Shown here: in pieces, positions 13,828 through 43,604 of the stretch | How positions within the stretch are numbered: position 1 is the first letter of the stretch | Layout of the letters: each line of letters opens with the position of its first letter | Assembly (NCBI GenBank): GCA_030591685.1 | Contig: JAUVAX010000002.1 | Location: forward strand, 62,001-126,000 | DNA: 64,000 nucleotides | Direction: 5' to 3' | Source: Pseudobdellovibrionaceae bacterium | Lineage (GTDB): Bacteria > Bdellovibrionota > Bdellovibrionia > Bdellovibrionales > UBA1609 | Notes under the pieces: model-generated | Seen by the model: the letters and a program-made list of their open reading frames with translations, nothing else | What the model was told of the DNA's origin: nothing | The model's database searches: none | Translations under genes and position numbers: made by a program

Positions 13828-15663
13828 ATGCTAAGACCCTTAACTTTTATAGTGGCCGTAATTTTATTTGCCGTTTCGTCGCAAGCTCGTGAGTTTGTGA
13901 GCGGCGAACTTATTGTAAAATTAAAAGCCAACTCTAGTGAAAGTCAGTCGTATAAGTTTTTGGGTAAGGCTCAATTACAAAAAAACATGAAATTAAAGCG
14001 TTCATGGAAGCGCATGAAAATGTATCACTTTAACATTAGAAAGGGTCAAAGCGTTGATGAGGCCATTGCCGATTTGCAAAATGACCCTGATGTCGCCTAT
14101 GCAGAGCCAAATTTTATACTTAGCAAATCAGCCAGTGAAGTCCAGAACACTCTTTCAGCAGATGTGGTGCAGTCCATGGCTGCGGCGGGTGGGCTTTACT
14201 CTACAGGTGCAGATATTGGTATTGATCAGGTGATCCCCAATTTAACCCCATCTGGTAATAAACCCATAGTGGCTATTATAGATACGGGTGTTGATATAAC
14301 ACACTCTGTATTTACTCAAAGTAACTCTATATGGGTGAACGCGGGTGAAGTCCCAGGTAATGGTATTGACGATGATGGTAATGGATACATAGATGATGTT
14401 AATGGCTGGAACTTTATTAATAACTCTGGCGTTATGTTAGATGACGATGATCACGGAACACATGTTGCGGGAACCGTTTTAAGCGTAGGGTTGGATATTT
14501 TTCAGGGCACTGTTTCTGAGTCGAGTGTTAAAATTATGCCTCTAAAGTTTTTAGACTCTAACGGGCTTGGAACAACGGCGGATGCCATTGCGGCCATTCA
14601 TTATGCTGTTGATAACGGTGCTTCCGTATTAAATAACTCTTGGGGGGGGGATAGTTACAGCCTTGCACTGCATGAGGCCGTAACTTACACCTACACAAAA
14701 GGGGCTGTTTTTGTGGCCGCAGCTGGTAACTTGGCCGGTAATAACGATTATGCCCCTATATACCCAGCCAGTTATGATGTGCCTAATATTATAGCGGTGG
14801 CAGCGACGACTGACTCTGATAATTTAGCTTCTTTTTCAAACTTTGGTTATAATACCGTGAGCGTTGGTAGCCCGGGGACTGTGATATTAAGTACTATACC
14901 TGGTGGGAACTTTCTTAGAATGTCTGGTACAAGTATGGCCTCGCCGATTGTTTCTGGTATTGCGGGTATTATTAAAGCTCAATCACCGACAATGTTAGGC
15001 TACCAAATCAAGACAATAGTGGAGGACTCCTCAGAGCCTGTGATACCCCTGCAAGGCAAGGTGAGTTCAGAGTCAAGAGTGAACGCCTTTTCGGCTTTAA
15101 CAATGTCGGGGGCGGTCACTGTGTCCTCTTATCAGCCGACTTACTCTTTAGGGGGGCGAAGCTTGGCCTCAGAAGAGGGCGCTGCCGGCTGCGGAGTCGT
15201 GTCAAAATTTGTGGGTGACAAACTCGGTGGGTCTGGCGGCAACGGGTCCTCTGGCGGCTTAGGGTTTCAGTTATTAACCCTACTTATATTAATAGGCCCG
15301 CTTGTTTATATAACATATATGAGAACTCAAAACAGCACAGAACAAAGACGTAAGCATGAGAGGTTTTCTGTTGAGAGTGATGTTAAAATCAAAATTGGTA
15401 ATAAGGAGCTTGTTGGTAGTGTGTCGTCAATATCACTTGGAGGAGTTCAGATTAATACTGATGCCCTGTTAGAAAACGGGGGCATAGTGAAAATGTCTAT
15501 ATCTACCCCTGATGGTAAAGAGCAAATCCAAGTGGCCGGTAAAGTGGTATGGAGCCAAGAAAAAGAATCTTATGGGCTGCAGTTTTCTGAGCCGAACTCT
15601 AAAGCGCTCAATAAAATTTCAAATTGGGTTTCAGGTCTAAAAAAGTCGGCGGCTCAAACTTAG
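13828..15663 (+). CDS. S8 subtilisin-like serine protease with C-terminal TM helix and PilZ domain
   Basis: Signal peptide, prodomain, IDTG/HGTH/AAGN/GTSMA catalytic motifs; GCG + Gly-rich linker + TM; RRKHER...SISLGG PilZ. Confidence 0.88.
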   Translation: MLRPLTFIVAVILFAVSSQAREFVSGELIVKLKANSSESQSYKFLGKAQLQKNMKLKRSWKRMKMYHFNIRKGQSVDEAIADLQNDPDVAYAEPNFILSKSASEVQNTLSADVVQSMAAAGGLYSTGADIGIDQVIPNLTPSGNKPIVAIIDTGVDITHSVFTQSNSIWVNAGEVPGNGIDDDGNGYIDDVNGWNFINNSGVMLDDDDHGTHVAGTVLSVGLDIFQGTVSESSVKIMPLKFLDSNGLGTTADAIAAIHYAVDNGASVLNNSWGGDSYSLALHEAVTYTYTKGAVFVAAAGNLAGNNDYAPIYPASYDVPNIIAVAATTDSDNLASFSNFGYNTVSVGSPGTVILSTIPGGNFLRMSGTSMASPIVSGIAGIIKAQSPTMLGYQIKTIVEDSSEPVIPLQGKVSSESRVNAFSALTMSGAVTVSSYQPTYSLGGRSLASEEGAAGCGVVSKFVGDKLGGSGGNGSSGGLGFQLLTLLILIGPLVYITYMRTQNSTEQRRKHERFSVESDVKIKIGNKELVGSVSSISLGGVQINTDALLENGGIVKMSISTPDGKEQIQVAGKVVWSQEKESYGLQFSEPNSKALNKISNWVSGLKKSAAQT

Positions 15664-15862: not shown

Positions 15863-18208
15863 ATGTTGTTGAAACGACTCTTGGCCGTTTTTATATCTCT
15901 ACACTTTTTTTTAAATGCCTTCACCACCCATGCTTGGGCAAGGTCGAGGACGCGGTATAACGAATACGAAGTCCGATTATCCTACCCTGATCAAGTTTTT
16001 CAGTCTGAATATGAAAAACTACGCACTCACGCCAACCAATTTATTGACCAACTCACCCCCTCTCAAAAAACCACTTTTATAAGCTCATTAAAAAACACCC
16101 CTTATCACTTAAATATATATAAAGAAGTTTCTTCAGAAAACCTATTGTCTACAGGCAAAGAGGTTCTTGGGAGGGTGTTGTTTGTGGAGCATGAGGGCTC
16201 ACTAATTAGGCATTACATGCTCTCTTCAAACGATAGGCTAGTGATTTCTGTTAACAAACAGCTACTTAAAGATGCCGATATGGACTTTTTAGAAAGACAC
16301 CTTAAAGAGGTTTATAGTAAGTCTACAATAGCTCGGGAGGTTTCAATTACTTGGAACGGCTTTATACACTCTCAAGATGTTTATACTAAAAGCCATAGTT
16401 TAGCGGCCGAGGACGTTGATTTAATGGCCAAAGCCACTGTAATGAGTTTGTCATATAATAAGAGAGTTCATGAAATGAACGAAAGCACTTTTGATGCTTT
16501 TATTAATGGCTCTATAGAGGCAGAAATTGAAAGGGTCAATGGGCCTAACAGGAGCATTAGCCCTGAAACTTTGGGTTTAATTTTACCACTATATAATTTA
16601 GCGATTGAAAAGCTAGAGGACTTTTACCTCACCGAAGCCTATGAGTATGTTAAGGGGCGGTCTGCACCTAACCAGATGGGTTTAGAGCAAACAGCTGAGC
16701 TTATGCACGAGGCCCGAGAGGCAGCTCAAGAGAGTTTCTTAAAGGGTCTTCAGGAGACAGGTAATATAGAGTTTCACGATATAGAGCTTGGGAAAGTGGT
16801 GCTTACAACTATCGATGGGGAGCTTGTGTATAAAATCCGACCCAACGGAACTGAAAAGATCTTTTTATGGGCCCCAAAGGGTTTAATTTCTGCTGATTCA
16901 ACGCATTTGAGGCAATATATATCAAGGCAGTTTATTGATGCTGGGACTGATAGGTCCGACGGAGAGCGCGGCCGGGACGTTGTACTTATGTGGGCTGATG
17001 AACTCGGTCAAGGGCCAGATATTAAAACTGAGAAAACAACAAAATCAATACCTAAAGTCACAAATTCAAGTGTTCAATTTAATTACCATCAGCGCCCTCA
17101 AGCTTGGACGGCAGAGTATTTTAAGCACTATTGGCGAGCCACTTATAAGCCTACGAGTGCTTCAGATAAAAAATTAGGTATTTACTGCGCCGTTTTGCAG
17201 GGCCTCGTCATGGCCGGGGTCAATGTGATGAAGGTTTCACTCGGGTATGCTGAGGCCATTAACCCATGGACTATTGGTGTGATTATGGTGTTCGGCGGGG
17301 TTATAGGAGCTAACTCAAGTACATATGTAAATTGGAAGTACCGTAAGGGCAAAAAAACAGATTCAGAATTTAAGAACAAAGCCATTCAAACAGCCAAAGG
17401 GGCCACTATAAGTGTGATGTACTCCGTGTCAGTAGGGATTGTTGATAACTCACTTCATAGTTTATATCACATCGCTTACAAGGCTTATGATATAGTTATG
17501 AACTCTTATGGTAAAACTGAATTTGAGCAGTGGGCTGTTATTAAACGCGAAAAACGCGCCGATTTAAAGAGCGTTGGGCTCCCTTATATTGGTTTAAAAA
17601 AACAAAAATTTGTAAAACTAATGAACTTCGATACTGGTAAAAAAATTCTCGTCAATACATCAGAGGCTGAAGAGCTAGTTAAGTCAGAACAGGCTGAGTT
17701 TTTAGAGGCGGACAGTGAGAGAAGGGTTCGAAACAGGTACTCTATTGGCCTAAAATGGATCGATGTACCAGAAGGCAAGGTGAATTTTCAAATTAAAACC
17801 CAAAACGCTATTATAGCAGTAAGGTCAGTGTCTTTAATGATGCAGGTGTGGTGGGTGTGGGCCTCAATACCACTTGTAAAGTACTTAACGTTAAAGTGGG
17901 CTGAAAAAAACCACCCAGATATGGCCGAGAAACTTGAGCTCAGGCAAAAGTGGGATAATTTTATTTTTAACCCCAATCCGAAAAGATTGGTCTCTAATTT
18001 GTACAGAGTGACGATTTTAAAAGCCATGAATACTTACAAAGAAAAACAAATACAATCAGATTTTGTCAGGTCAGTTAACTCATGGAGCAATAAAGAGGGG
18101 CCACAAAAAATGACACCGGCACATAGGCCAGAGCAAAAACCTAAACGCAAGCCGGATTCAATTTTAAAAGAAAATTTATCTTGTCAGGGTTTGTTTGCCG
18201 CCGCTTAG
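15863..18208 (+). CDS. Large secreted hypothetical protein with internal hydrophobic segments and C-terminal SCQGLF motif
   Basis: 781 aa ORF, signal peptide ending HAWA, AAGGA RBS upstream. Confidence 0.75.
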   Translation: MLLKRLLAVFISLHFFLNAFTTHAWARSRTRYNEYEVRLSYPDQVFQSEYEKLRTHANQFIDQLTPSQKTTFISSLKNTPYHLNIYKEVSSENLLSTGKEVLGRVLFVEHEGSLIRHYMLSSNDRLVISVNKQLLKDADMDFLERHLKEVYSKSTIAREVSITWNGFIHSQDVYTKSHSLAAEDVDLMAKATVMSLSYNKRVHEMNESTFDAFINGSIEAEIERVNGPNRSISPETLGLILPLYNLAIEKLEDFYLTEAYEYVKGRSAPNQMGLEQTAELMHEAREAAQESFLKGLQETGNIEFHDIELGKVVLTTIDGELVYKIRPNGTEKIFLWAPKGLISADSTHLRQYISRQFIDAGTDRSDGERGRDVVLMWADELGQGPDIKTEKTTKSIPKVTNSSVQFNYHQRPQAWTAEYFKHYWRATYKPTSASDKKLGIYCAVLQGLVMAGVNVMKVSLGYAEAINPWTIGVIMVFGGVIGANSSTYVNWKYRKGKKTDSEFKNKAIQTAKGATISVMYSVSVGIVDNSLHSLYHIAYKAYDIVMNSYGKTEFEQWAVIKREKRADLKSVGLPYIGLKKQKFVKLMNFDTGKKILVNTSEAEELVKSEQAEFLEADSERRVRNRYSIGLKWIDVPEGKVNFQIKTQNAIIAVRSVSLMMQVWWVWASIPLVKYLTLKWAEKNHPDMAEKLELRQKWDNFIFNPNPKRLVSNLYRVTILKAMNTYKEKQIQSDFVRSVNSWSNKEGPQKMTPAHRPEQKPKRKPDSILKENLSCQGLFAAA

Positions 18209-20114: not shown

Positions 20115-21077
20115 ATGAATACTCAATGGGGTTTTACTATTAAATCAAACAGAGGTGCTTCACTGATACAGGTCATGATTGCCTCTGCCGTTGCGGGTAT
20201 TGTAAGTTTACTTATTGTCAGTGTGATGCAAAACCTTTTAAAGATGAACAAACAGATTAATGTAAAAACTAATGCTATAATGATTAAGCAATCCATTGTT
20301 TCAATACTCCAAAACTCCGAATCTTGGGAGCACACACTTGATGCAAACACTGTTAAAATGGGTTGTATAAAAAACGGTGTGTCGTGTGCGGCGTATGCTG
20401 ATTTAGATGAGGTAGATCCAGATAAAAGAGAGGGAGAGCTTTTTGTGCTTAAGGACTCTCATAACAACACAGTTAGAGGTTTTACAAGTAATGGTGTGCC
20501 CTGCACAGGTTTCGTAGACCCTACGGCGGGTGCTGACGGTCCCTTGCCCGGAGTAGATAGTTGCCCTTTTGGAGTTGTTTTAAAATTTCTTGCGGACTGC
20601 CCTGACGCTAGTAACTGTATTAAGCCCCTTGTAAAGATCTCAGGATATATTTATTATAACTCTCGTAAACAGAAATTCCCTTATAACCCTGAAAATAATA
20701 AAATTGACTTCATTAGGTCGGGGGATTCAGTGGCTTATATGTGTGCTCAGTTTGGTGGTACTTATAACAGTGCGGCTAAAACATGTGGCGGCGTAGGAAA
20801 CACTGTTGCTGTGGCACCTGTTGTGGCAGCTGGTAATCCGTGCCCTCTTGAGCATGCTTTCTCAGCTGGGAATTCTCCAATTACCATGGTTGATGACGGT
20901 ACGAGGGAGTTTGGAATACGAAGAGGCATAGGTCGTCGACTTGTGAAATGGTATTTGCAAGGTAACAATCTATGGTGTTCTGTAAATAAATCAAGACGTA
21001 AGTTTCACAAGTGTAATAATGGCGTATGGGACTGTGATACGGGAGCAAGCACCTGCTTGACTGTGACGTCGTGTTGA
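20115..21077 (+). CDS. Type IV pilin/pseudopilin-like protein with Cys-rich domains
   Basis: Prepilin-like RG|ASLIQV (Q at +5), hydrophobic helix, Cys-rich body, extra Cys-rich basic C-terminal domain. Confidence 0.75.
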   Translation: MNTQWGFTIKSNRGASLIQVMIASAVAGIVSLLIVSVMQNLLKMNKQINVKTNAIMIKQSIVSILQNSESWEHTLDANTVKMGCIKNGVSCAAYADLDEVDPDKREGELFVLKDSHNNTVRGFTSNGVPCTGFVDPTAGADGPLPGVDSCPFGVVLKFLADCPDASNCIKPLVKISGYIYYNSRKQKFPYNPENNKIDFIRSGDSVAYMCAQFGGTYNSAAKTCGGVGNTVAVAPVVAAGNPCPLEHAFSAGNSPITMVDDGTREFGIRRGIGRRLVKWYLQGNNLWCSVNKSRRKFHKCNNGVWDCDTGASTCLTVTSC

Positions 21078-21116
21078 TAGGTTGTAAATTTAGTTATTGA
21101 TTAATTTGAGGGGTCG

Positions 21117-21782
21117 ATGGAGCTATTAATTAAATCTAATAAGGGTTTTTCACTGATACAGGTTATGATGTTAGCTTCTGTTGCAGGCATATTAAGTTTT
21201 ATAACAGTTAATATGATGCAAAATAATTTAAAAATAAATAAGCGCCTTAACGCTAAAGTTAGTGCTGGGATGATTAATGCGTCTGTAATTGCCATATTAA
21301 ATAACAGTAAATCATGGGAGAACACACTGAGTGCAAATCAGACAATGACTTGTTTAGAGGATAGTGCGGACTGTAGTAGCTTTGGTGATCTAGCTGAACC
21401 TTTTGAGCTCAGGGATGTTCACGACAATATAGTAAAGGGCTTTACGAGTACTGGGGCAGCATGTACAGGCTTTGTGGGCCCTTCAGTGGTGGGGCCTAAT
21501 GGCCCATTGCCAGGTGTTGACCATTGCCCCTTTGGAGTTGAACTTAAGTTTCTTCCGGATTGTGTAGATGACGCTTGCGAAAACCCTTTAGTTGGGATTA
21601 CGGGGGTTGTTTATTATAACCCCAGTAACAGGTCGTTTTCGTTTAACCCTGAAAAAAATAAAATTGATATTACTCGCACGGCTCTCGGAGGCAGTTTCGC
21701 CCTTCTATGCAATAGGTTTTTAGGAACATACATTCATGCGAGCCAATCATGTACACTGGCTGATATCATTCAACAACCGTAA
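21117..21782 (+). CDS. Type IV pilin/pseudopilin-like protein, tandem paralog of 20115
   Basis: KG|FSLIQV; shares GPLPGVDxCPFGV and NPExNKID with the upstream gene. Confidence 0.75.
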   Translation: MELLIKSNKGFSLIQVMMLASVAGILSFITVNMMQNNLKINKRLNAKVSAGMINASVIAILNNSKSWENTLSANQTMTCLEDSADCSSFGDLAEPFELRDVHDNIVKGFTSTGAACTGFVGPSVVGPNGPLPGVDHCPFGVELKFLPDCVDDACENPLVGITGVVYYNPSNRSFSFNPEKNKIDITRTALGGSFALLCNRFLGTYIHASQSCTLADIIQQP

Positions 21783-22092: not shown

Positions 22093-22536
22093 ATGCATAA
22101 ACAATTAGTGATGATTTTATCTTTATTAGTTTTCAATACAGCTTTAGCCTCTGTTTCAGAAAAGGGTGTGAAAAGTGAATTGAGTGGTGAGTTAGTCTAT
22201 TATGAGCAATCTGAGAGCTATCTGGTTAAAATTACGGGACTCAGTGCTGAGAGGCTTTATATGGCCGGCTTAAGTCAGCTAGGTGATGTGGAGCCGGAGG
22301 TAATAACTTCAACAGAAAATGGCGTTCGGGCCGAACAATTATTGCGGCAAGTGGCGTTTGGCTCATGGGTGTGTCTTGAGTATTTAAGGCGCTCTTATTT
22401 TAAAAGTGATGAAGAGCGTGAAAAAAGTTTAGCCTCACGAGTTTACGATATGGCTCTAGAATTGGCTAGAAGAGCTAAAAAGCGCTACGTAGTGCCCACA
22501 GGTAAGTATGCCTGCTTAATGTCAACACCCCTTTAA
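22093..22536 (+). CDS. Secreted hypothetical protein
   Basis: GGGGAG RBS, signal peptide ending TALA, two Cys. Confidence 0.7.
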   Translation: MHKQLVMILSLLVFNTALASVSEKGVKSELSGELVYYEQSESYLVKITGLSAERLYMAGLSQLGDVEPEVITSTENGVRAEQLLRQVAFGSWVCLEYLRRSYFKSDEEREKSLASRVYDMALELARRAKKRYVVPTGKYACLMSTPL

Positions 22537-22758: not shown

Positions 22759-24474
22759 TTGACTGTACTTATGAGCCAGATCCTGAATTTTTTAATACCA
22801 ATAAATAATCAATGGTTACCACAAGTTATTATGGTTTTAGCCGTTAGTTTTTTATTTGCTCCTTTGGTCGCTAAAGCGCCTGAGGCGACAAAGAAGCTAT
22901 GTAGAAATATATTTTTATCATTATCCCAATCAAACTCTTATGAAAATGTAAGGCAGCAGCTGTTTAGAGTTCGCCCCCATATTAATGAGCTTCAGGGTGC
23001 AGAGGGTGATATGGTTTTTAACCACCTATTAGAGCCTCAAAAGTTACTTGAAGTTAAGGTGCCAGTATTAATGGACTCTGGCGAGGTAAAGGTATTTCAT
23101 GGGTGGCGGTCGTTACATAGCTCGTATAGAGGTCGCTCGCAAGGCGGGACTCGCTTTAGTAATGACGTTGATAAAGACGAAGTCAGAGCTCTCTCGGTTT
23201 TAATGAGCTTAAAAACAGCAGCAGCAGGTATACCATTTGGAGGAGGCAAAGGGGGGTTAAAGATAAACCCTCGTGATCTTTCTTTAAGAGAGCTAGAGCT
23301 AGCGGCTCGAGGGCTCATGAGTGAGCATTTAAAAGCAGATTCGTTTGCGTTTCACCCTGAAGTAGATGGTACAGCCTCAGACAGGGGGACTAACGGTCAG
23401 ATAATGAACTGGATGCTAGACACCTACTTGCACTATAGGGCGACTCATAACAGTTTGTCAGATAAAAAATTACAAGAGTATGTGAATAAAAATTTTGACC
23501 TTGAGGCTATGTATCGTTTAAAGAAAGTCGGCGAAGCCCCTTTGCTTGAAATTTTTAATGGTCTACGAGGCCAATACAGCATACCTGAGTACGGGGTTAT
23601 TACGAGTAAGAGTATTGAGGACGGTGGCTCCCAGGGGCGCACAGAGGCTACAGGGCTTGGGGTTTATTACTCCATAAGAGAGTCTGTAGATCATTTTTTA
23701 GGATTTAGTAAGCATAAAACAAATCAGCTATCAGATTTAACCTTTGCCATCCAGGGTTTTGGTAACGTGGGCTCTCACGCGGCCCTTTTTATCTCAGAAA
23801 TGGGCGCTGGTAAGGTGACTCAAGTTGTGGAGTATGTAGGTAAAGGTAATCCAAAAGAAGAGTTTATTGTTTTCTCTAACCCCTTAGGGTTACCTGTAAA
23901 AGAAATGTTTGAGCATGCGGTCACTCAAAAGCTGCCTTTGGCGCAATTTAAACACCCTGGAGCTAAAATTTTTAGAACAGACGAATCCGGAGCAAAAAGC
24001 TTGTTTGTCTCAAGTCATGTTGATGTGCTTGTGCCCGCCGCTAAGGAGAATCAAATCACCAGTGACAATGCCTCACAGGTAAAGGCTAAAATAATAGTTG
24101 AAGCCGCTAATGGGCCCACGACCCCTCAAGCGGACCTAATTTTAGAGGAAAAAAAGATAATTGTTGTCCCAGATATACTGGCCAACGCAGGTGGCGTGAG
24201 TGTGAGCTATTTAGAGTCACAGCAAAATGCGAACAACACATTTTTAAAAAAACAAGTTGTGTTTGAGCGTTTAGATAAAATAATGACCAGGGCATTTAAA
24301 AACGTCAGAGATGTTTACGAAAAACACGGTAATATAAGCCTGCGTGATGCGGGTTACATTGATGCTGTTGAAAAACTAATTAAAGCTCGAAACACTCAGG
24401 GTAAGGTGAAGCGCCTTACAGAAGAGCTAGACACTCCAATGAGAACCCTTCATAAAAAACAACTCATAAATTAA
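22759..24474 (+). CDS. Glu/Leu/Phe/Val dehydrogenase family protein with N-terminal signal-like peptide (start uncertain: 22759/22771/22831)
   Basis: GGGKGG, GRTEATGLG, QGFGNVG, EAANGPTT, PDILANAGGV motifs. Confidence 0.9.
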   Translation: MTVLMSQILNFLIPINNQWLPQVIMVLAVSFLFAPLVAKAPEATKKLCRNIFLSLSQSNSYENVRQQLFRVRPHINELQGAEGDMVFNHLLEPQKLLEVKVPVLMDSGEVKVFHGWRSLHSSYRGRSQGGTRFSNDVDKDEVRALSVLMSLKTAAAGIPFGGGKGGLKINPRDLSLRELELAARGLMSEHLKADSFAFHPEVDGTASDRGTNGQIMNWMLDTYLHYRATHNSLSDKKLQEYVNKNFDLEAMYRLKKVGEAPLLEIFNGLRGQYSIPEYGVITSKSIEDGGSQGRTEATGLGVYYSIRESVDHFLGFSKHKTNQLSDLTFAIQGFGNVGSHAALFISEMGAGKVTQVVEYVGKGNPKEEFIVFSNPLGLPVKEMFEHAVTQKLPLAQFKHPGAKIFRTDESGAKSLFVSSHVDVLVPAAKENQITSDNASQVKAKIIVEAANGPTTPQADLILEEKKIIVVPDILANAGGVSVSYLESQQNANNTFLKKQVVFERLDKIMTRAFKNVRDVYEKHGNISLRDAGYIDAVEKLIKARNTQGKVKRLTEELDTPMRTLHKKQLIN

Positions 24475-24603: not shown

Positions 24604-25335
24604 CTACTTTTTTGTCCCTATAAAAATAAGGTGGGGGTCTTTACGGAAAAACCTTTTGAGCTGAGACTTAATCCAAAGCGTGCTAAAAACACGGCCTTCA
24701 TGACGCCAAAAATCAGTTGTTTCACAGTGCAGAGTCTGAAAGGAGTGTTTTTTCATAACTTCAACTAGGGAGTGTTGGTCAAAGCTTCTAACGTGCTGAA
24801 AGCGGTGAAAATACGCTCCACACTCTGCACATAAAACTTTTGCAGAGGTTAGGTTTTCATTATTAGGGGTTGTAACAATCACTCTTCCGCCGGGTTTAAG
24901 TATCCGACATATTTCTGTAAGCGTTGAGCTCAGGTCTGGGTCAAGCAGGTGCTCAATGGTTTCAATAAAAAATAAATTATCAAAGGAGTTTGATTGCAAC
25001 TCAGTTGACGGTAGGCCAGAGAGGGTAACCCCTTTTGTAAAATTACTATATTTAGTGAGCTTACCCTCAACAAGTTCCACAGACTGGGCTGAAAAATCAC
25101 AGATGGTGAGTTTAACTAGTGGTTTTTTAATGAGCTTCTCTGAGAGGTACCCATGTCCAGCCCCAAAATCGAGCACGTCGCCAGAAATAGAGAACTTGTT
25201 ATTAACGTATCTAATGAGGCCAGTGCCAACCTGCTCTGTAAAGTAAGAGCTAGATAAGAAGGGTATTTTTTCAATATTATCCCAAAAAAATTTAATCTTT
25301 TCATGATCCCATTTTATGTCATGAAGTTGAGCCAT
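24604..25335 (-). CDS. Class I SAM-dependent methyltransferase
   Basis: VLDFGAGHG motif I; ETIEH...ILKPGGRVIVTTPN; CxxC. Confidence 0.88.
   Translation of the reverse strand: MAQLHDIKWDHEKIKFFWDNIEKIPFLSSSYFTEQVGTGLIRYVNNKFSISGDVLDFGAGHGYLSEKLIKKPLVKLTICDFSAQSVELVEGKLTKYSNFTKGVTLSGLPSTELQSNSFDNLFFIETIEHLLDPDLSSTLTEICRILKPGGRVIVTTPNNENLTSAKVLCAECGAYFHRFQHVRSFDQHSLVEVMKKHSFQTLHCETTDFWRHEGRVFSTLWIKSQLKRFFRKDPHLIFIGTKK

Positions 25336-42954: not shown

Positions 42955-43604
<650 letters not shown>

Follow-up and report, generated by a model that had tools for sequence, protein, structure and literature searches.

A glutamate dehydrogenase-family gene and its product

Within the window, by which we mean the whole stretch of 64,000 nucleotides under analysis, an intact reading frame encodes a protein of the glutamate dehydrogenase (GDH) family (Table 1). 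Besides the TTG start, two in-frame ATG codons at 22771 and 22831 would give products of 567 and 547 aa. The gene stands alone, with a 147-aa ORF (22093-22536) on one side and a convergent methyltransferase gene (24604-25335) on the other, and no effector-immunity or secretion context was found among its neighbours. A promoter scan returned 7 matches against 5.9 expected, and the GC content of the gene region (0.40-0.41) equals that of the genome (0.40), thus giving no sign of recent transfer. Reads of one DNA sequencing run, possibly the run behind the assembly, cover most of the gene and show no differences, and two RNA runs gave no matching reads, which is evidence neither for nor against expression. 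The host is probably a Bdellovibrio-type bacterium and a predator, judging by its lineage, with a genome of 2.66 Mb that is 100% complete by markers. Its phosphoglucose isomerase matches PDB 7nss, the B. bacteriovorus enzyme, at E 4e-86, the next entry reaching 1e-37.

Table 1. Coordinates of the gene, its features and other ORFs carrying the Cys tag (positions in the window unless a contig is named)
Feature	Position	Strand	Remarks
GDH-family dehydrogenase gene, whole ORF	22759..24474	+	571 aa from TTG; frame intact
Core of predicted Sec signal peptide, V23-A40	22825..22878	+	By eye; Kyte-Doolittle 11-mer 3.0
C-R-N-I-F tag (C-x-x-[ILVF]-F)	22900..22914	+	~10 residues past the predicted cleavage site
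Substrate-binding/dimerisation domain PF02812 (ELFV_dehydrog_N)	23035..23427	+	Residues 93-223; E 7e-37
GRSQGG, residues 125-130	23131..23148	+	Gln128 (codon 23140-23142) at the Lys89 site of C. symbiosum GDH; Arg126 replaces the usual Pro
Kept Lys152 and GGGKGG Lys164	23212..23256	+	Equivalents of Lys113 (alpha-carboxylate) and catalytic Lys125, by alignment
DGTASD, residues 203-208	23365..23382	+	Gly204/Thr205 replace Val/Pro; Ala206 (Ala163) and catalytic Asp208 (Asp165) kept
Helical insert H225-Y278 (predicted)	23431..23592	+	Net ~46 residues; clade motif T-P-[LYF]-L-[DE]
NAD(P)-binding domain PF00208 (ELFV_dehydrog)	23623..24402	+	Residues 289-548; E 3e-58
GFGNVG Rossmann loop	23755-23772	+	Within the PF00208 domain
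Tagged signal-bearing 781-aa ORF	15863-18208	+	Ends SCQGLF; no Pfam match
Tagged signal-bearing 204-aa ORF	42990-43604	-	ACTHIF after the signal peptide; no Pfam match
Tagged Fic, AAA + M41, GGDEF, AAA and circularly permuted ATP-grasp ORFs	G000 C23, C84, C27, C62, C39 (L128, L135, L141, L146, L147)		

Both the PF02812 and PF00208 architecture and the predicted fold fit membership of the ELFV superfamily. The AF2 model has a mean pLDDT of 93 and a target TM-score of ~0.9 to hexameric GDHs, and the best solved relatives are likewise small hexameric GDHs (2yfq, E 6e-76), leucine dehydrogenase reaching just 5e-10. All NCBIfam GDH equivalogs scored far below their cut-offs (NF040817, the best, 308 bits against 750; NF041398, 284 against 620).

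An earlier note on this DNA had described a hydrophobic signal-like segment and an LCRNIF motif ahead of a GDH-family enzyme, and we found them at V23-A40 and at residues 47-52, respectively. Cleavage is predicted to be more likely after L-V-A38 than after A-K-A40, where Pro comes next. As judged by eye, the hydrophobic core and the L-V-A/A-K-A ends are present and a basic n-region is absent, while signal peptides complete with n-region charge, core and small residues at -3/-1 occur in the related proteins P0003 and P0124 and in those of genomes G021 and G300. The tag region is predicted as a helix at lower confidence (AF2 H2-15, pLDDT 58-75). Relatives carry the tag as KCASFF, SCQKLF, QCHILF or SCHKLF, and the Cys sits 5-10 residues past the predicted cleavage site, preceded by KKL, VHK, GFS or SSQ. 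A variant form with R-x-P-A-S before the Cys was seen at L149 1213-2871 and L150 1183-2898 and in P0125 and P0126. A lipoprotein, judged by the familiar lipobox pattern, was rejected, since there is no lipobox with the Cys directly after the hydrophobic core, as was a Tat substrate, since residues 1-40 hold no twin-arginine.

The internal insertion reported in the earlier note is present, its net size of ~46 residues being slightly smaller than the 50-70 aa given there: 56 residues occupy a site that holds 10-11 residues in all 118 standard homologues. It is predicted to be helical (AF2 pLDDT 95-98; helices at model positions 197-206, 209-215 and 222-229), and an ESM Atlas search with the insert gave a best score of 0.81, which is chance level. 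It starts just past the equivalents of Thermotoga GDH residues 158-160, which we take to be a subunit-interface site. Together with the loss of the Trp of EWxQN, which is accompanied by loss of the aromatic motif that follows, this location suggests that hexameric assembly may be altered in the insert-bearing protein.

Active site, substrate pocket and cofactor

Alignment to C. symbiosum GDH placed Gln128 at the Lys89 site and showed the equivalents of Lys113, Lys125, Asp165 and Ser380 to be kept, in agreement with what the earlier note had read from the GGGKGG, SLK and GGVSVS motifs (Lys164, Lys152 and Ser483). Its altered GRSQGG and DGTASD motifs are likewise there, the latter with Val, Pro and Pro changed and the functional residues Ala163 and Asp165 retained; the third of these changes, Pro to Ser, is confined to this copy, P0003 having DGTAPD. 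Other pocket residues are also conserved, namely Thr282 (Thr193), Arg294 (Arg205), Asn451 (N349) and, within GGVSVS, Val480 (Val377) beside Ser483. All 118 standard homologues have Lys at the Lys89 site, as do 380 of the 383 GDHs of 300-620 aa retrieved, and the combination of Gln for Lys89, Arg for the Pro two positions ahead of it and Gly-Thr for the Val-Pro that precedes Ala163 was seen only in this protein and P0003 (2/383).

According to the accessible parts of the sources cited, Lys89 and Ser380 confer glutamate specificity (bioRxiv 2024.12.26.630402; PMC2723916), Lys89 binding the glutamate gamma-carboxyl, a site at which large GDHs have Arg (bioRxiv 2024.12.26.630402). Swapping only these two sites in C. 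symbiosum GDH abolished activity and produced no switch (PMC2723916, available text). The portion of PMC9902596 at hand describes K71A, V143A, P144A and A145G as substitutions that make C. difficile GDH more active towards 2-oxo acids other than its native one, with Arg187 as a further carboxylate ligand that forms a salt bridge. This numbering fits protein P0005 (K71, I143, P144, R187), from which it follows that three of the four sites engineered in C. difficile GDH are changed in the 571-aa protein. Loss of the Lys89 charge together with replacement of Val-Pro by Gly-Thr would probably give a roomier, less positive and still polar pocket (Gln128, Thr282, Arg294, Ser483). Since Arg294, as second gamma-carboxylate ligand, and Ser483 remain, glutamate activity may survive. 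Our best guesses for the substrate, made from the pocket residues, are glutamine, methionine or 2-aminoadipate, and not leucine or valine.

Concerning the cofactor, Glu358 aligns with Glu243 of the NAD-specific P. asaccharolyticus GDH (2yfq), a residue mutated (E243K) to shift preference from NAD towards NADP (PMC5817062, accessible part). Glu358 and the GFGNVG loop suggest that NAD+ is probably preferred, although the fingerprint of GxGxxG plus an acidic residue closing the following strand has many exceptions among GDHs, as noted in the available text of PMC12364357.

Distribution, relatives and phylogeny

The host genome also encodes an ordinary GDH (contig C10) and a leucine dehydrogenase (contig C29), which answers affirmatively the question of a separate housekeeping enzyme posed by the earlier note. 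An ordinary GDH of 421-439 aa is present in all five genomes with an exported-type copy, two of them of only 1.2-1.3 Mb. These two, G021 and G300, belong to the same family as the host and, at 93-95% completeness, keep three ELFV dehydrogenases; both (L121, L122) have apparent mevalonate-pathway genes. A close relative, P0003 (553 aa), is an orthologue at 45% identity: its signal peptide is of textbook form, its tag reads KCASFF, and it shares the insert, with RSQGG and DGTAPD in the pocket. Whole-genome searches found the exported-type GDH in 3 of 390 genomes of the class (host, G021 and G300), a rarity which argues against a part in the core predation machinery; it occurs in 4 of 401 genomes sampled from the phylum, which adds G437 and G444, and in 2 of 20 genomes of the order of G444.

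Three more, P0124, P0125 and P0126, came from a profile search, bringing the clade to nine members. The N-terminal extension whose absence from homologues would have told against the earlier reading is carried by these relatives: each of the nine has, at its N-terminus, a hydrophobic segment with a Cys after it, and each bears the insert, while not one of the 321 standard GDHs compared (480 aa or shorter) showed such a segment. This distribution indicates that export is likely a trait of the clade. Seven of the nine keep the GPGKGG and DVPAPD glutamate pocket, which suggests that export came first and that the pocket change marks a sub-branch, so that export and pocket change appear to be separable. 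Secretion and altered specificity, which the earlier note had proposed together, are both well supported by inference, the second not extending to the seven; its candidate metabolic effector at work in prey cytoplasm is plausible and accords with the tagged ATP- and GTP-using enzymes described below. Further members with the Lys-to-Gln change, beyond P0003, were not found among the best 120 of 8000 proteins scored in a single-protein search, in the profile search, in a region search, nor among the best 150 of an HMM scan of 50% representatives, and the DNA pattern DGTAxD-x-GTN matched 23 metagenome loci, none of them a GDH.

In quick, unrooted trees with long branches, the first six members formed one group (SH-aLRT 98), and in a tree with more rows a branch valued at just 90 set the nine members plus P0256 apart from the other sequences. 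Grouping of the nine-member clade with the housekeeping clade was rejected by the AU test (p-AU 0.0003), and with it an origin as a duplicate of the housekeeping gdh.

The HMM scan of 50% representatives retrieved more GDHs with the same insert. Among 31 aligned rows, hand-picked for the insert or the signal segment and including two controls, 22 have 53-84 residues at the insert site and share a T-P-[LYF]-L-D motif; these counts were read from the alignment, as sorting by regular expression misplaced P0219, P0240, P0337 and P0122. A hydrophobic segment is clear at the N-terminus in twelve of the 22; three are borderline or partial, and seven have none, two of the seven being apparently partial records. 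Several are modules of proteins of 800-5900 aa, one of them labelled Omnitrophota (P0348). As the insert also occurs in GDHs beyond the clade, some of which lack a signal segment, it is older than this gene and no proof of export, and its interpretation as a one-off or purely export-specific feature was rejected. Other proteins in this set deserve mention. P0256 bears both signal segment and insert and has a pocket altered differently (AIAAPD, ARNEAT and changes around the Val377/Ser380 sites), possibly a second specificity variant. P0129, P0132 and P0333 are GDHs of ~800 aa with the same insert and no signal segment, whose C-terminal domain has no Pfam match and looks P-loop-like by eye.

The Cys tag in the host genome

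Of 2333 ORFs, 15 have the pattern C-x-x-[ILVF]-F among their last 10 residues, where 1.9 were expected, and 44 have it within residues 13-75, where 19.1 were expected. By a crude script, 18 of these 44 have a hydrophobic segment ahead of the tag, ~11 of them convincing by eye, and in a similarly crude scan the tag appeared either after a signal peptide or at the C-terminus, never in both places. Out of 25 tagged ORFs scanned, 18 had no Pfam match and seven matched Fic, GGDEF, AAA plus M41 peptidase, AAA, circularly permuted ATP-grasp, phospholipase D and carboxylesterase. Five of the seven, assigned by family match alone and one of them at a contig start, belong to ATP- or GTP-using families, and this need, like that of an NAD-dependent GDH, points to a destination where cytoplasmic nucleotides are available. 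Type IV pilus PilB scored over its cut-off in the host genome. The ATP/ADP translocase PF03219 was matched in none of the five genomes, the controls likewise giving no match.

Proposed function and alternative explanations

We tentatively favour, giving it a little less than an even chance, a reading in which the gene encodes a second GDH-fold enzyme that would be exported through Sec, would likely prefer NAD+ and would deaminate an amino acid other than glutamate in the contents of the prey. Its N-terminus would very probably serve as a cleaved Sec signal peptide. Since a steady supply of NAD is not expected in the periplasm, or anywhere outside the cytoplasm, onward routing is proposed, and we judge the chance to be slightly better than even that the Cys tag would direct the protein, in company with other tagged enzymes, to the cytoplasm of the prey or into a prey cell that has been opened. 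Once there, the enzyme would probably oxidise its substrate to a 2-oxo acid, ammonium and NADH, draining the amino-acid pool of the prey and shifting its redox state, and the seven relatives with a canonical pocket would do the same with glutamate. In the accessible parts of the literature, B. exovorus is modelled as reaching the prey cytoplasm upon disruption of the inner membrane (PMC12428579), and an unsilenced catabolic GDH has been linked to growth suppression via futile cycling in B. subtilis (bioRxiv 2021.04.12.439528), which provides a rationale for the glutamate-type members of the clade. It is speculative, and somewhat unlikely, that Bdellovibrionota deliver an amino-acid dehydrogenase into living prey by way of Sec and the Cys tag, with prey NAD+ serving to drain the amino-acid pool, as an effector class in common with Omnitrophota carrier proteins of which this copy would have a new substrate (glutamine, methionine or 2-aminoadipate, for example).

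The main rival, which we regard as rather unlikely, keeps the exported enzyme on the producer side, in the periplasm or at the surface, where it would use amino acids and NAD from lysed prey or act as a binding partner of an uptake system. In G021 and G300, where the exported GDH lies in the thrS-infC-rplT region (L121 2736-6069, L122 6366-9628), the gene immediately upstream of it is sodium:alanine-symporter-like, and a peptide-transporter-like gene follows 20 bp downstream of the exported GDH in G437 (L150 1183-4361), all named by eye; such neighbours in three relatives would fit nutrient handling in the bacterium's own envelope, as would the N-termini of G444, G437 and P0126, which resemble uncleaved anchors with a linker, and the predicted extracellular glycolytic domains of Omnitrophota giant proteins, for which nutrient pre-processing has been proposed (bioRxiv 2023.11.21.568195, available text). 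However, no transporter lies beside the gene in the host genome, nor on the same strand in G444, and all nine members have complete catalytic and NAD sites, which a pure binding protein would not need. The expected scarcity of NAD outside the cytoplasm weighs against producer-side catalysis as well. That the exported protein is still a glutamate dehydrogenase, Arg126 and Arg294 holding the gamma-carboxylate instead of the lost Lys, seems improbable to us. In its favour, Arg126 is confined to the two proteins with the Lys-to-Gln change, Arg occupies the Lys89 site of large GDHs, the C. difficile enzyme has its second salt bridge from Arg187 and seven relatives keep the glutamate pocket; yet Arg126 stands two residues off the Lys89 position, and Val-Pro is replaced by Gly-Thr at sites that open the pocket in engineered enzymes (accessible part of PMC9902596).

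Export itself calls for some caution, as this copy appears to have the weakest signal peptide of its close group, with an uncertain start and that Pro after A-K-A. We nevertheless find it highly improbable that translation starts downstream of the hydrophobic segment, or that the segment anchors an enzyme body lying in the producer cytoplasm. Such a situation would accord with the lysines after the segment, with the insert-bearing GDHs that have no signal segment and with the three upstream starts, none of which, by eye, is preceded by a clear ribosome-binding site. On the other hand, the signal peptides of P0003, G021, G300 and P0124 are short and canonical, having a basic n-region and ending in A-x-A, the Cys tag is common to other signal-bearing ORFs, and a start at the next ATG (Met85) would remove the first helix of the family. 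A decaying or catalytically dead paralogue is scarcely credible: branches are long and Ser207, Ser283 and Ser487 depart from near-invariant sites, but the frame is open, all catalytic residues are kept and an orthologue that is 45% identical has these pocket changes too, implying that they are under selection.

Relation to known enzymes and significance

Taken as a known kind of enzyme in a new form, with export that appears well supported by conservation, the 571-aa protein shares with small hexameric GDHs (2yfq, Pyrococcus 1gtm, Thermotoga 1b26, B. subtilis GudB/RocG 3k8z/3k92; 30-35% identity, TM ~0.9) the same fold, the catalytic Lys/Lys/Asp, the Rossmann loop and the acidic residue at the 2yfq E243 site, and differs from them in its signal-like N-terminus, Cys tag, 46-residue helical insert, changed pocket and lost EWxQN Trp. 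The extracellular GDH of C. difficile presumably has no signal peptide. There, the GDH reported outside the cell is the housekeeping enzyme (PMC7482061, accessible text), whereas here it would be a dedicated paralogue with a signal-like segment. Leucine, valine, phenylalanine and tryptophan dehydrogenases belong to the same ELFV superfamily and also have a residue other than lysine at the Lys89 site, but they are far more distant; leucine dehydrogenase, defined in the available part of PMC2723916 by Leu40 and Val294 at the Lys89 and Ser380 sites, was rejected on this distance and on the Gln and Ser found here. The engineered GDHs of C. difficile (K71A, V143A, P144A, A145G) and P. putida (A167G, V378A) are altered at the same pocket positions (PMC9902596, in the part available), the replacements here being natural and polar (Gln, Gly, Thr).

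Omnitrophota giant proteins, from host-dependent bacteria, likewise place cytoplasmic-type enzymes behind a signal peptide, and the accessible main text of the two preprints describing them holds no mention of GDH modules that we could find (bioRxiv 2023.11.21.568195; 10.64898/2026.06.07.730766). Compared with the giant proteins that carry GDH modules, which keep the Lys89 site, the protein studied here is a stand-alone enzyme of 550-580 aa with a short Cys tag. In the literature searched, whose coverage left out most subscription journals, no GDH with a signal peptide was found described for these bacteria; what that literature holds, in its accessible parts, on secreted glutamate dehydrogenase concerns C. 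difficile and helminths.

On the question of how the prey cytoplasm is reached and disabled by Bdellovibrio-type predators, the available part of a 2025 review (PMC12428579) finds that evidence is still limited for the functions of their secreted enzymes and secretion systems. An NAD-dependent enzyme is a built-in reporter of location, as turnover occurs only where NAD is, and its activity can be assayed in one cuvette; for these reasons a small stand-alone protein offers a far easier test of the Cys-tag route than giant carriers do. Likewise, a natural GDH changed at three sites targeted by engineers may represent a new amino-acid dehydrogenase activity of biocatalytic use.

Two further loci in the window are worth recording. 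Tandem ORFs of 320 and 221 aa (20115-21782, + strand) have pilin-like N-termini (G-x-S-L-I-Q-V-M), several Cys and no Pfam match, and an ORF at 13828-15663 (+ strand) encodes a secreted subtilase of family S8 that has a hydrophobic segment late in its sequence and ends in a PilZ domain.
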